Below are positions 13,881 through 27,021 of a stretch of DNA of 64,000 bases, one piece after another. A program made the position numbers and the translations under genes. This DNA is from a virus (taxonomy: Duplodnaviria; Caudoviricetes). The stretch lies in IMG/VR virus record IMGVR_UViG_3300035498_000844, positions 1-64,000 of that record; one strand, 5' to 3'. Position 1 is the first letter of the stretch; every line of letters begins with the position of its first letter. The notes under the pieces were generated by a model. It was given only the letters and a program-made list of their open reading frames with translations. It did no database searches and was not told where the DNA came from.

Positions 13881-13939
13881 CGGCCCTTGCTGGTCGCCAG
13901 CGGGCCGCTAATTATAACATACTTTTATGCGCTTGTCAA
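13881..13939 (-). promoter_or_regulatory. sigmaA promoter firing into a GC hairpin, no ORF (module M1)
   Basis: TTGACA 13939-13934, 17 bp, TATAAT 13916-13911; hairpin CGGCCC-GCTGG-CGA-CCAGC-AA-GGGCCG. Confidence 0.7.
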
Positions 13940-14058
13940 TAGGCAAAATATATAAATTTTTTATTGAAATTTCGTTAAAAATCACTAAAAAATAATAAAA
14001 TAACACAAAAAATGGAGCTTTTTAGCTCCATTTCCGCATTTTTTATGCAATTTGTACA

Positions 14059-14466
14059 TTATTTCTTTGGTTTCCGCTTCTGAATTAGATTTACTTCAAA
14101 CTTTTCATCCCCAATAGAAAAGGAAATCAACTTACCAACATTCAAAATTTCCACATTTTCCGCAAAATTTGGGAGAATTTTTGCAATTTCCGCAATTACC
14201 ATTTCTTTTGTAGGATTTTCTTTTCTGGTGCGCTCTTTCTGGGTTTTCTTTTTTGGCTCTGCTGATGTTGCTTGATGAATGGTTGCGGTAATGCGATTTT
14301 CTTTAGCTTTCTTTTCAAGCTCTTCCTGTTCCTCATTTTCAAGATAGCCTTCATCTTCTAACCACATCTGAACAGCTTCTTCTTTTGTAATGCTCCAGTG
14401 TTCCATACTCTGTTTGATTTCGCTATCTGGAATTTTGATATTCTTACCATCTAAATTATAAGTCAT
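14059..14466 (-). CDS. Hypothetical protein, paralog of 18049-18414
   Basis: Shared T.EEA.Q...ED, E.KAK, IAK.L...V.I.N...I.F.IG...L...RK; GAGAGG SD before ATG 14466. Confidence 0.8.
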   Translation of the reverse strand: MTYNLDGKNIKIPDSEIKQSMEHWSITKEEAVQMWLEDEGYLENEEQEELEKKAKENRITATIHQATSAEPKKKTQKERTRKENPTKEMVIAEIAKILPNFAENVEILNVGKLISFSIGDEKFEVNLIQKRKPKK

Positions 14467-14615
14467 GTTATTAACCTCTCTTTCCATGCTTTCCTTTTGT
14501 TTCTAAAAATATTATAACAAAAAATTTTTAAAATGTCAATAGTTTTTTTAAAAAGTTTTGAGCGGCATTTCAACCGCTCAAAGGAAAGGAGGGAAACAAT
14601 GTTAGGATAGTAAAA

Positions 14616-14727
14616 TGGAGCTTACAAGATTTGAACTTGTGATACTTTGGTTAGAAGTGGTTTGCCTTGTATATTTTTCTTTCAAGTTACCATCTTAAAA
14701 GAAAATATATCCATAGCCTAAAGCCCC
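14616..14727 (-). ncRNA. tRNA-like RNA with a 16-bp hairpin inserted in the D arm
   Basis: Acceptor GGGGCTT/AAGCTCC, T arm ACAAG-TTCAAAT-CTTGT, inserted helix 14670-14709 capped by ATGGTAA, non-canonical loop CTAACCA. Confidence 0.75.
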
Positions 14728-14734
14728 AATTAAA

Positions 14735-14807
14735 TCTGCCTAATGGGATTCGAACCCATGCTCCCATGATTAAAAGTCATGTGCTTTACCAACTAAGCTA
14801 CAGGCAG
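14735..14807 (-). tRNA. tRNA-Lys(TTT)
   Basis: Canonical cloverleaf: CTGCCTG/TAGGCAG, GCTT/AAGC, CATGA-CTTTTAA-TCATG, ATGGG-TTCGAAT-CCCAT; CCA not encoded. Confidence 0.95.
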
Positions 14808-14865
14808 TCAATGGGACTAAAAAGTCCCAAAGGAAAGGAGGAAAAGCAATATTTAGTTAATAAAA

Positions 14866-14950
14866 ACTGCCTAGTAAGATTTGAACTTACATTAGTCTAT
14901 CTTCACAAAATTGTATCTTCAAACTGTTTTACCTTTTAAACTATAGGCAG
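14866..14950 (-). ncRNA. tRNA-Lys-like RNA with a 20-nt anticodon loop
   Basis: CTGCCTA/TAGGCAG, GTTT-AAAAGGTA-AAAC, GTTTG-(20 nt)-TAGAC, GTAAG-TTCAAAT-CTTAC. Confidence 0.8.
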
Positions 14951-14974
14951 TGGGGGCTTTCGCCCCCCATCCGC

Positions 14975-15358
14975 TTAGGCGAGAGAGAAGAAAGCTTTCT
15001 TCTTCTCATAGGTCTTTACAACCTCACCAGAATCAACCATCTTTTTAAGGATTGCAGACAACTTCTGATTGGAAATCTTTCTACCATCTTCCAGAGTATA
15101 AGTTGCTACACTTTCATTCTCAAGTAATGCAGATACAGTAACAGGCTCACCAATTTCAGCGAGAACATCCTTAATGGTAGCAATTACCGCAATATTCTCT
15201 TTCTGGGTTTTAGTCAGAGTGGACTTGCTAGACTTTTTGTCCAGAAGCTCGATTTCATGATCAATAAAAGCCATGATATCATTAATGCGCTCATCTCCAG
15301 ATTCAGTAACAATGACCTTCAGAACCTCATACCAATCTTTCTTTGTCATCTTTGTCAT
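14975..15358 (-). CDS. MTKKDW-family winged-helix protein (paralog 2)
   Basis: Near-colinear with 18464-18847; SNQKLSAILKKMVDSGEVVK wHTH. Confidence 0.8.
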   Translation of the reverse strand: MTKMTKKDWYEVLKVIVTESGDERINDIMAFIDHEIELLDKKSSKSTLTKTQKENIAVIATIKDVLAEIGEPVTVSALLENESVATYTLEDGRKISNQKLSAILKKMVDSGEVVKTYEKKKAFFSLA

Positions 15359-15671
15359 AGTTCATACATCCTTTCTTTTTTGAAATGTTTTCTTTTCTTT
15401 TGATATAATCATTATATCATATTTCTTTTTGTTTGTCAAGACTTTTTTTTATTTTTTTAAATTTTTTAAGGAATGCGCGAACCGCCTTGACTTCGGTTTT
15501 TTATTTCCTTTCTTTTGATAAGACTATTATAACAAAAATTTTTGAAAAAAACAAGTCGGAATATTGCACAAAGATCAACGAATTTTGGATGGATTATTTG
15601 TTCATTCTGCTATTGTGCAATGTGCATGAAATTCGGGAAGAGAAAGGCAAAAAAATTGGCTAAAATTGCTC

Positions 15672-15746
15672 TTGACAAATTTTGCAGGGTGTGGTATAAT
15701 GGAATTTTCGGCGCTTGACATTTGTCTGCGCGCCGACGAAAAGTCA
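15672..15746 (+). promoter_or_regulatory. Antisense sigmaA promoter firing into a GC hairpin (module M2)
   Basis: TTGACA 15672, 17 bp, TATAAT 15695; TCGGCGC/GCGCCGA with inner GAC-ATTT-GTC. Confidence 0.7.
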
Positions 15747-25132: not shown

Positions 25133-25249
25133 TTCTTTTTACCTTAATCCTTTTTGGATTTCCTTTCCTTTTGATGGTTTAATTATAACTCCTTAGTAGC
25201 TTTTTGTCAAGCACTTTTTAAAATTTTTTTTATTTTTTGAAGAGACTTT

Positions 25250-25342
25250 TTACTTAGCCTCTTCAAACATCTCTTCATCAGAAATTTCAAGTTCTTTCAT
25301 AAGATCTTCTAAAGTTGCTCCGTACATCATCATCTCTGTCAT
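25250..25342 (-). CDS. 30-aa acidic peptide
   Basis: MTEMMMYGATLEDLMKELEISDEEMFEEAK; own promoter, GGGAG SD, downstream hairpin. Confidence 0.6.
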   Translation of the reverse strand: MTEMMMYGATLEDLMKELEISDEEMFEEAK

Positions 25343-25676
25343 TGTTTTGTTCTCCCTTCTTTTGATGGTTTAAGTATACCATACGTTACAATAAATGTCA
25401 ACAGTTTTTTAAAAAATTTTTAAAAATAAAAAATTGCAGGCTGAGTGTCTGCGTCCTATCTGGTGTCCACTCCTTCTCCCACTATTATAATATCATGTTT
25501 ATGCGGAAAAGTCAAGCAGTTTTTATTGTTAATTTTTTAACAATCTTCGCCCTTTGGATTGCGGGATTCAGCTTTAAAATGCGAAAACCTAGCTTTTCTG
25601 CGGAAAAAGCTAGGTCTATGTTACTATGGAGTGAACCGAGCTACCTACGATTGTTCGCGGTAACCCTTGAAGTGTA

Positions 25677-25847
25677 TTACTTCAAAAATGTGCTAATAGC
25701 TTCAAAGCAAACGTTTGCATTGTCCTTTGACTTTGTGTCTTCTTGTTCAGCAAAATTGTTCATTGCTGATGAGATAAGATCTTTGACACTCACAAAGTTA
25801 AGTACAAGCCTTAAAGCTGCTAGTTCGTCTAAGCTAACCTTGCCCAT
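25677..25847 (-). CDS. 56-aa protein with a structured 3' trailer
   Basis: AGGAG SD; MGKVSLDELAALRLVLNFVSVKDLISSAMNNFAEQEDTKSKDNANVCFEAISTFLK. Confidence 0.65.
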   Translation of the reverse strand: MGKVSLDELAALRLVLNFVSVKDLISSAMNNFAEQEDTKSKDNANVCFEAISTFLK

Positions 25848-25931
25848 TCGGTTCGACTCCTTTCTATATTCTATTTTCTTTATATTATTATTATACCATA
25901 AAATTTTTTAAAAGTCAAAATGAAGCGGTTT

Positions 25932-26084
25932 TCACCGCTCCATTAGTTCATTATACCTAGCTTTAATCTGCTTCATAGTCGGATTCCCGCCTAACTGAAT
26001 ACAAAATAAACAAAAGTCAAGTGTTTCATCTGCCTCAAACCCAAATTTTCTAATTACTTTATCCATCATCTGTTCTTTTGTCAT
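25932..26084 (-). CDS. Small protein, paralog of 20522-20671
   Basis: MTKEQMMDKVIRKFGFEADETLDFC...KARYNELMER. Confidence 0.7.
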   Translation of the reverse strand: MTKEQMMDKVIRKFGFEADETLDFCLFCIQLGGNPTMKQIKARYNELMER

Positions 26085-26188
26085 ATCTTATTCCTTCTTT
26101 CTTTTGATACCACTATTATAACGTAGTAGCTAGTTAATGTCAAGCGGTTTTCGTATCTTTACCGCTCTTTTTATCCCGCCCAAAGTCA

Positions 26189-26500
26189 CTATGAAGTGAC
26201 CCAGCCGCGTTTCTTTTTTATAGCTTCATACTTTTCCGCTTTTTCTTTTTCAATTTTTTCTTTATTATACTCTCTGACCTTAATCTTAAGATAATTATAT
26301 CTTTTTAAATCAGCTTTTGTCCAATAACGCTTGACACAGATCTTTTCAATGCCTTTGATCCTCAATGTTTTAACAAAGTTCTCTTTACCTATTGTTCTGA
26401 TAAGCTCATTGTCTTGCTTTATAATACAACTCACTGGTTTGTATTCTCCTGTTGTGCAAAACAGTGTGACTTGATACTCTTTCAACATAATTATCATCAT
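26189..26500 (-). CDS. Hypothetical basic protein
   Basis: 103-aa ORF; start could be 26488. Confidence 0.7.
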   Translation of the reverse strand: MMIIMLKEYQVTLFCTTGEYKPVSCIIKQDNELIRTIGKENFVKTLRIKGIEKICVKRYWTKADLKRYNYLKIKVREYNKEKIEKEKAEKYEAIKKKRGWVTS

Positions 26501-26553
26501 CCTTTTTTTATTATAATATCCTTGTTATTCATGTTATTCATTGAGTATGAAGC

Positions 26554-26766
26554 TTAACAAGCTTCATACTCTTCATCATCGGAATACTCACGATAATCCC
26601 AAGGAATTTTACATTCTGAACCATTATCATAGCAACGATAGACTTCTATTGAGCCGCATTGTGACATTGCAAATTGAGAAGCTTTATGTTTTGAAGAGAA
26701 CCAGAACTCTTTATCAGACTCCATCATGCTATATGCTTTCTTTACCACTTTATATCCCTTTACCAT
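26554..26766 (-). CDS. Hypothetical protein
   Basis: 70 aa; own promoter. Confidence 0.65.
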   Translation of the reverse strand: MVKGYKVVKKAYSMMESDKEFWFSSKHKASQFAMSQCGSIEVYRCYDNGSECKIPWDYREYSDDEEYEAC

Positions 26767-26963
26767 TTTTATTTCCTTCCTTTCTTGTCTGTTTCCTTAC
26801 CTTGTAAATACATTATAGCATTGTCGTTTAAGAAAAGCAATAGGCAAATTGCACAAAGATTCAATTATAACTTTGTGCAACTTTTTCTTAATTTATGTTT
26901 TCATGATAATGCACTTTAGGGAAAATTTTAATTGGCAAAATGAACAAAACAACTGCGAAAAAA

Positions 26964-27021
26964 TTGTGCATTATTACTATTGACAAGGCAAGTCGGCTCG
27001 CATTGACTGTGCGCGAGCCGA
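26964..27021 (+). promoter_or_regulatory. TTGTGCA box, -35 and GC hairpin without a -10 (module M6)
   Basis: TTGACA 26980; TCGGCTCGC 26993-27001 / GCGAGCCGA 27013-27021. Confidence 0.55.

Follow-up and report, generated by a model that had tools for sequence, protein, structure and literature searches.

A conserved promoter-hairpin unit that opposes gene flow between the early operons of large uncultured phages

The window analysed here is a 64-kb stretch (positions 1 to 64,000) of the 73.8-kb IMG/VR record IMGVR_UViG_3300035498_000844, a Caudoviricetes virus with a GC content of 29.6%. An initial annotation had marked six elements in it, M1 to M6, as a family of consensus promoters that fire into GC-rich hairpins with no open reading frame (ORF). 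All six were found, and they are copies of one conserved junction cassette between early operons, confined to 13.8-27.1 kb of this sequence. The family itself is real: the promoter-hairpin unit at the core of the cassette, which is unpublished, recurs in dozens of related uncultured phages, where we counted 163 units. Judged from its sequence, the unit is best read as a possible transcription boundary and counter-transcription device producing an antisense RNA that is capped at its 5′ end by the hairpin, a reading to which we give an even chance.

Results

The early genes of this phage are small and occupy the minus strand between ~28.8 and 13 kb. Almost all of them come with their own TTGACA-17-TATAAT promoter and a leader cassette (families D1-D6), and the 17-kb early region holds 24 perfect (12/12) promoters. 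Followed in the direction of gene flow, the junction cassette begins behind an operon and its ordinary terminator with an A-rich linker of 7-16 nt, which leads to the GC hairpin and then to a backward sigma-A promoter, here called P_A. Beyond P_A lie the TTGTGCA and TTTCGGGA boxes and the forward promoter of the next operon. Read on the plus strand, the order is the reversed promoter of the next gene, TTGCACAAA, usually fused to TTTCGGGA, a variable stretch, TTTGTGCA, 9 nt, TTGACA-17-TATAAT, ~8 nt, the GC hairpin, the A-rich linker and the terminator of the preceding operon.

The promoters at M1, M2, M4 and M5 and the minus-strand promoter at M3 match the consensus at 12/12 positions and the plus-strand promoter at M3 at 11/12, while M6 has a −35 element alone; the 17-bp spacing assigned to M1-M5 and the missing −10 element of M6 were thus both borne out. 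On the gene-less plus strand, 17 kb contain three perfect promoters and one of 11/12, where by our own arithmetic ~0.03 perfect ones are expected by chance. P_A is also richer in consensus features than the gene promoters (TRTG 71% versus 33%, TGn 92% versus 77%). The boxes are similarly tied to the cassettes. TTCGGGA is present in six copies in the record, all on the plus strand and one per unit, and 10 of the 12 occurrences of TTGTGCA-N8-11-TTG are located inside cassettes (reversed control, 0). The exact 17-mer TTGCACAAATTTCGGGA was found at 34 IMG/VR loci on contigs of 6.5-198 kb, with the same layout in nearly all of them.

These 34 loci, together with 20 more from a scan for the promoter and leader motif (22 matches), led to a family sample of 574 kb from ~60 IMG/VR phage loci, to which the L-numbers below refer. 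It contains the 163 promoter-hairpin units, with 130 distinct hairpins. The gap between the −10 element and the stem has a sharp peak at 8 nt (67/138); a minor class of 3-4 nt is formed by the partner promoter across the hairpin in face-to-face pairs such as M3. Perfect GC hairpins number 331, compared to 2 in shuffled sequence, and 118 of the 331 have a promoter at 8 nt.

The fixed spacing bears on the reading that the plus-strand promoters are incidental and the hairpins do no more than terminate the minus-strand genes. The hairpins do lie just past gene 3′ ends, and at M3 GTTTTT directly follows the hairpin on the minus strand. Mismatches in the stems lean to wobble pairing on the gene-flow strand as well (A:C 10 versus G:T 3), a lean that could be explained by a transcription-linked mutation bias; the counts are small, and near-perfect Watson-Crick stems give the test little power. 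However, in most units the hairpin is preceded, at a distance of 7-16 nt, by a canonical terminator that does have a proper T tract, and the tract of the hairpin itself is poor (GAAWWTTCC). A terminator scan flagged none of M2, M4 and M5, so that the absence of a clear U-tract noted for these elements stands for them but not for the minus strand of M3. The 8-nt spacing, together with a promoter consensus stronger than that of the gene promoters and beyond chance, largely refutes a terminator-only role, which we regard as very improbable.

The stems are conserved as structures. A covariance model (R1), built from five copies and including the −10 element and leader sequence, gave 70 matches, M4, M5 and M2 among them. 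In the stem alignment of 62 distinct sequences, 94% of the cells are paired and all eight pairs (8/8) vary on both sides. The covariation score was 0.45, compared to 0.10 in shuffled alignments (0/500) and 0.02-0.08 when the partners were slid, in an alignment that was fitted to the model and hence leans towards structure; compensatory stem changes are also visible in plain pairwise comparisons of close relatives. In Rfam searches at gathering and at permissive thresholds only tRNA-type matches passed, none of them on the cassettes. R1 found nothing significant in the Enterococcus phages EF1 and VRE9_4 or in phage phAss-1, and it is too specific, missing the phAss-1 copy that can be seen by eye.

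Two other identities for the hairpins were considered and rejected. A tRNA-like minihelix with an NCCA end does not fit, as the loops do not resemble T-loops and the C-C-(C/A)-A flank is present in many copies but not in every one. GC motifs of a Chi-like or restriction-related kind cannot account for perfect palindromes of varying sequence.

In five near-identical phages (L005, L008, L017, L019 and L033) the box-promoter region is nearly identical and the hairpins differ at several positions. For one scored pair, 4/129 nt differ upstream compared to 6/27 nt in the hairpin, partly compensated. The hairpin is the locally fastest-changing part in these phages.

We then looked at what the backward promoter faces. 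For promoters of the 8-nt class, the first feature past the unit is the end of a convergent ORF in 89 of 122 units. In 11/130 units an ORF on the same strand, with its ribosome site, lies within 130 nt, and most of these 11 have a promoter of their own in between. In L025, L001 and most of L011, each cassette opposes gene flow and is placed between mini-operons of 1-5 genes. The initial annotation had most of the elements pointing against gene flow, which is right for the backward P_A units; M1 and the minus-strand promoter of M3 run with it. The stem is followed by a C-C-(C/A) consensus and A-rich sequence, and 7-16 nt away the canonical terminator of the opposing operon begins. Second hairpins able to terminate P_A transcripts were detected in 8/70 cases. 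Because of this layout and the few usable terminators, the backward RNA is expected to carry the hairpin at its start, pass through the opposing terminator and continue into the gene as antisense RNA. The discrete RNAs of 40-50 nt that had been suggested are not predicted, given that only 8/70 have a terminator in promoter direction; the suggestion of insulating or polymerase-blocking elements between cassettes is the reading best supported by the anatomy.

The loops show a strand asymmetry. On the P_A strand they are 61% purine compared to 43% in the background, and GGA (26 versus 5) and GAC (24 versus 7) are more frequent than on the other strand. Counted per sequence cluster, purine-rich loops outnumber pyrimidine-rich loops 25 to 10, and GAC outnumbers GTC 12 to 1 (p 0.003). 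The loop families AGGAMCGT, which includes M4 and M5, and GCGACCCAT recur on different stems. GAC had been proposed as common to the loops; it is so in the window and is enriched in the family, but it is not universal, since loops of 3-16 nt differ even within one phage and share no universal motif.

The strand-specific GGA and GAC content and the recurrence of AGGAMCGT and GCGACCCAT on different stems favour free trans-acting small RNAs: a host or phage factor would bind the GC hairpin and loop of the P_A transcript, which might serve as a decoy or sponge, mimic an RNA anti-CRISPR or provide antitermination with a boxB-like loading site. The possible RNA ends at M2 and M5, where T-rich hairpins follow after ~85-95 nt, point the same way. 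Against this, the loops lack a universal motif, vary in length from 3 to 16 nt and differ within one phage, the RNA body past the hairpin is unconserved and frequently marks the point at which homology ends, a terminator in P_A direction is missing from most units, and Rfam gave no match. The commonest loop family also has no CRISPR-like arrays among the bacterial matches listed: AGGAMC loops were found at at least 120 bacterial loci among these matches, as single copies in high-GC genomes with no arrays, a low-value test. The decoys for Cas6/Cas5 or antitoxin mimics of 40-50 nt put forward in the initial annotation find no support, as the stems differ within one phage and covary; because structure is kept and sequence is not, the hairpins cannot all copy one CRISPR repeat. 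The strand-specific purine and GAC bias of the loops leaves some room for a trans-acting role, but trans-acting small RNAs are an unlikely explanation of the P_A transcripts. Likewise, there is a slight chance that the family represents a new class of phage RNAs, with GC-clamped 5′ hairpins and purine/GAC loops (AGGAMCGT, GCGACCCAT) recognised by a host or phage factor. If so, the RNA would be a sponge or decoy, or would load a factor onto its own polymerase, and would not be a passive cap.

In comparisons of related phages, the cassettes had matches of 70-90% identity at dozens of loci, and the intervening genes had matches at few. In the close pairs L053/L059, L002/L016 and L017/L019, the hairpin and the 129 nt upstream are 94-100% identical, and the next 30 nt are unrelated. 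Internal end points of homology are located within 15 nt of a hairpin in 8.1% of cases compared to 1.8% at random (4.7-fold; 0/500 shuffles reach this value). Its conservation, far above that of the genes, would make the unit a site of module exchange between phages. A stronger version is that the unit is a recombinational linker for swapping early-gene modules, like the PeSL cassettes of T4-type phages, with P_A transcription being secondary. The reach of the cassettes across loci, the close pairs that are identical through the hairpin and unrelated after it, and the enrichment of end points at hairpins all favour this version. Yet ordinary gene promoters are enriched for break points too (27% versus 11% within 15 nt, 2.5-fold), which makes this a property of all conserved intergenic cassettes, and a linker leaves the stem covariation, the 8-nt spacing and a promoter stronger than gene promoters unexplained. 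We hold it to be distinctly improbable.

Within the window, the copies form a decay series: M2 and M4 are intact, the stem of M5 is weakened, M1 has no backward promoter and M6 has no −10 element. The canonical copy of the GC hairpin is that of M4 (20466..20492, plus strand), with 10 bp and the loop AGGACCC, 8 nt past the −10 element (−20.9 kcal/mol, z −4.8; covariance model E = 1.5e-6). Its P_A (20429..20457, plus) is 12/12 with TG and is preceded by TTGCACAAATTTCGGGA and the inverted TTTGTGCAA (20379..20420, plus). The forward promoter of the next operon (20341..20369, minus) is 11/12 and has a TTGTGCA box 10 nt upstream, and on the other side the terminator of the convergent gene 20522-20731 is found at 20510..20531 (minus).

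At M2, P_A (15672..15700, plus) reads TTGACA-17-TGTGGTATAAT, which is 12/12 with TG (R1 E = 0.005), and the hairpin (15708..15736, plus; −15.7 kcal/mol) begins 7 nt past the −10 element. The boxes (15564..15638, plus) comprise TTGCACAAA at 15564, its inverted partner ATTGTGCAA at 15612 and TTCGGGA at 15632. The forward promoter of the next operon lies at 15526..15554 (minus), with a TTGTGCA box upstream. The terminator of the convergent upstream operon (15768..15798, minus) is T-rich on both sides, and the M2 RNA may end there, at ~95 nt.

The backward promoter of M5 (23185..23213, plus) is also 12/12 with TG, and its weakened hairpin (23225..23245, plus) has the loop GAGGACCGT, −10.3 kcal/mol, z −0.1 and a covariance model E = 1.8e-5. 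Its boxes (23099..23176, plus) consist of a TTGCACAAA/TTTGTGCAA pair, TTCGGGA at 23145 and another TTTGTGCAA that lies 9 nt ahead of the −35 element. Past the hairpin there is an extra inverted repeat TTGCACAAA..TTTGTGCA followed by T-rich sequence (23270..23300, plus), at which the M5 RNA may end after ~85 nt, and then the terminator of the upstream operon (23323..23350, minus). Over 114 nt, M4 and M5 share 74% identity; their stems differ by three compensatory changes and their loops have the core AGGACC in common. They also share their ending, as had been noticed before: nowhere in the 73.8-kb record does CCCGTCAA occur other than at 20490 and 23246. The two elements are paralogues, M5 being a decayed copy of M4.

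M3 has a GC hairpin (17959..17983) common to two face-to-face promoters, at −12.5 to −15.7 kcal/mol. Its backward promoter (17911..17939, plus), TTAACA-17-TATAAT, is atypical with the stem 19 nt past the −10 element, and is preceded by TTGCACAAATTTCGGGA and the inverted TTTGTGTAA (17870..17901, plus). The plus-strand loop CACGACCCAC resembles the recurrent GCGACCCAT family. The gene-flow promoter of M3, of type B (17988..18032, minus), is 12/12 at 18016-17988, has its own TTGTGCA box at 18032-18026, and leaves 3-4 nt between its −10 element and the stem. The upstream operon has its terminator at 18037..18061 (minus).

The promoter of M1 (13911..13939, minus) is likewise of type B and points in gene-flow direction; it is 12/12 with TG and its −10 element ends 3-4 nt from the stem. 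The M1 hairpin (13881..13907, minus; −19.7 kcal/mol, z −3.25) is formed by CGGCCC..GGGCCG with an inner GCTGG/CCAGC stem, and the relative L004 preserves this pairing through a C-G to G-C swap. A TTCGGGA box, one of the six in the record, is present at 13804..13810 (plus). The backward partner promoter has decayed; L061 retains the full face-to-face pair at the M1 position, and the window and L004 share the decayed left side.

M6 (26964..27021, plus) consists of a TTGTGCA box, a −35 element (26980-26985) and a GC hairpin (26993-27021; −17.8 kcal/mol). Its form without a −10 element is retained in the relative L012. A minus-strand forward promoter and a TTGCACAAA..TTTGTGCAA inverted repeat lie at 26812..26880. 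Downstream, a TTCGGGA box (27105..27111, plus) is located within a block conserved in L012 and L016. This region, 3′ of M6, has ~300 nt without an ORF (27022-27315), in which 27095-27210 (GTATATTTCGGGAAAA ... AAAAAATCTCCAAAAGTATTTTCAAAATC) is strongly conserved in these two relatives and could be another RNA or protein-binding element. Two further remnants that had been suspected did not hold up: near 24800 we found a −35 element and a GC patch without a hairpin, and near 13771 a small terminator-like stem (13776-13790).

Several observations concern the boxes. In L043 (816-859) and L046 (3864-3907) the inverted repeat of the boxes is stretched to arms of 15 bp (GGCAGATTGCACAAA ... TTTGTGCAATCTGCC), which might fold into a cruciform or hairpin instead of being a pair of distinct protein sites. 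In L006, L014 and L029 an ORF with a ribosome site replaces the hairpin ~50 nt to the right of the TTGCACAAATTTCGGGA 17-mer and is driven from the divergent promoter slot; because of this, the slot appears to be a general bidirectional promoter region. The window encodes two 127-aa paralogues on the minus strand (14975-15358 and 18464-18847; 70% nucleotide identity over 300 nt). The gene at 14975-15358 is located behind a TTGTGCA-box promoter, and the C-terminus of its product has sub-threshold winged-helix matches. From their sequences, the two paralogues are candidates for a box-binding factor. Pfam searches with ten neighbouring small proteins gave sub-threshold winged-helix hints and nothing above threshold.

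A second class of promoters has a palindromic A/T spacer (TTGACA-yAAAAAAATTTTTrTG-nTATAAT). In the window these promoters are found on the minus strand at 13570-13598, 14511-14539, 15526-15554 and 17828-17861. Phage phAss-1 has ~20 near-identical ones on one strand of its middle region (3.5-125.6 kb of the record). This suggests a separately regulated promoter set.

The plus-strand late block starts at 29.2 kb with a sigma-factor gene, followed by terminase, portal and a 2802-aa ORF that by analogy with phAss-1 is probably the tape measure. The phage-encoded sigma factor (29201-30376, plus; phrog_5767, E = 8e-51) that opens the block has its own host-type promoter (29143-29171), back to back with the last early promoter. 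CheckV estimates a completeness of 56%, which gives a full genome of ~130 kb. The portal protein is 37.5% identical to that of phAss-1, the host of which was predicted as Clostridia by its authors (PMC10607447), and ~32% identical to those of Enterococcus siphoviruses of 130-140 kb. The source phage is a large (~130 kb), phAss-1-like phage from gut or rumen, with Clostridia as its probable hosts.

A megablast search of 15 kb against cultured or deposited phages gave no match, and a distant blastn search with the M4 unit returned phAss-1, one chance match and nothing else. phAss-1 carries one promoter-hairpin cassette (132.85-133.0 kb); the phAss-1 paper mentions neither promoters nor hairpins. 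In bacterial genomes, the TTGCACAAATTTCGGGA 17-mer was, among the matches listed, scattered over unrelated phyla in a chance-like manner (a few hundred random matches were estimated). Two of the listed loci have a real cassette, both on contigs of rumen metagenome-assembled genomes. As these two contigs are probably phage, the scan gives no clue to the host.

Discussion

From the architecture and its conservation, the 8-nt gap, the covariation, the absence of an ORF and the head-on orientation we infer how the unit may work. P_A would load host RNA polymerase head-on against the preceding operon. Read-through would be stopped at the operon boundary by P_A, ~40 bp behind the terminator, and the preceding operon would be damped by polymerase collision and by antisense RNA over its terminator and 3′ end. 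Based on the 8-nt gap in most copies, the P_A RNA is predicted to start 0-2 nt before the hairpin. Because this start adjoins the stem, the hairpin may cap the untranslated RNA against the 5′-end-dependent RNases of Firmicutes (RNase J1/Y). On the other strand the same hairpin could support the real terminator as a back-stop stem-loop that follows it. The boxes are putative operators, probably for a phage factor that co-regulates the back-to-back promoters. A unidirectional terminator combined with an antisense promoter represses a gene in proportion to how strong the antisense promoter is (PMC4731013), antisense initiation near terminators is known in E. coli and B. subtilis (PMC6978322), and RNAs are stabilised by 5′-terminal stem-loops (work listed in the review PMC3997798).

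Several points weigh against a boundary device of this kind. Collision or a roadblock requires no RNA hairpin, so the role of the hairpin is the weakest link. A plain 5′ cap needs neither a strand-specific GAC/GGA loop bias nor the AGGAMCGT and GCGACCCAT families. For a back-stop terminator the U tract is poor (GAAWWUUCC), and the lean of the stem mismatches to the gene-flow strand also goes the other way. Furthermore, only M2 and M4 are fully canonical in this phage, M5, M1 and M6 being decayed or variant, and most of the ~24 early promoters here do not have the unit.

P_A may instead act on polymerase or DNA, either by recycling polymerases that have just terminated or as a motor or primer site for genome entry or replication. 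P_A lies no more than ~40 bp from the termination point of the preceding operon, and a terminated polymerase stays on the DNA and often restarts antisense (PMC6978322). In addition, the P_A promoters aim at the late-gene block both in this record and in phAss-1; however, this direction is automatic, since the late block and the early genes to which they are antisense are divergent. The hairpin is left unexplained, and many units per genome speak against replication origins, which we rejected as an identity of the units on this count. The chance that P_A works in this way appears small.

Among known systems, the PeSL cassettes of T4-type myoviruses come closest in form: a stem-loop is placed upstream of a promoter that drives the next gene via a Shine-Dalgarno sequence and start codon (Comeau et al. 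2014, PMC4122927; also Arbiol et al. 2010, PMC2839356). Both combine a near-consensus early promoter of sigma-70 type with a stem-loop in a small unit that recurs between small genes, early or accessory, in a plastic early region; both are better conserved than the genes and are found at the boundaries of indels or replacements between related phages. In our cassettes, however, the promoter is inverted; it fires into the hairpin and towards the preceding operon and has no gene of its own, the next operon being served by a separate forward promoter. The phage lineage and host phylum are different as well, and the TTGTGCA/TTTCGGGA boxes have no PeSL counterpart. A further trait of PeSL cassettes is that mini-circles are excised when tandem copies recombine.

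The synthetic unidirectional terminator with a constitutive antisense promoter (Brophy and Voigt 2016, PMC4731013) has the same layout at the gene 3′ end. It represses through polymerase collisions and antisense RNA (PMC4731013). That part was engineered in E. coli and, in contrast to the phage unit, lacks operator boxes, a divergent partner promoter and a hairpin at the 5′ end of its antisense RNA. Harden et al. 2020 showed that antisense starts cluster within ~200 nt of intrinsic terminators at promoter-like sequences (PMC6978322). In comparison, the promoter described here has the full consensus and an extended −10 element and is conserved across phages.

Antisense RNAs such as lambda OOP and those of Firmicute type I toxin-antitoxin systems are short, constitutive and convergent, are complementary to the 3′ end of a gene and lower its mRNA by duplex cleavage. 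These are single loci with defined, terminated RNAs of conserved sequence, whereas the phage unit is generic and repeated and keeps only the 5′ hairpin. RNA anti-CRISPRs (Racr), encoded as solitary repeat units, are promoter-driven short hairpin RNAs without an ORF in phage accessory regions that copy the CRISPR repeat of the host; the hairpins described here vary in sequence from copy to copy, with structure alone being kept. The nut/boxB sites of lambdoid phages have a conserved boxA, and an N-type protein recognises the fixed purine-rich loop of their boxB hairpin, in contrast to the diverse loops of 3-16 nt found here; nothing conserved in the flanks of our hairpins resembled a boxA.

Hard-wired and highly conserved, the unit belongs to the regulatory grammar of a large group of big Clostridia phages from gut and rumen that has hardly been studied. 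It marks operon boundaries and so helps in the annotation of these genomes. Made up of a promoter, a 5′ cap hairpin and operator boxes, it also offers a compact part for tests in Firmicutes. Should the backward promoter function in the proposed way, it would represent a natural counterpart of the synthetic terminator-plus-antisense-promoter part and a selected case of antisense initiation close to terminators.

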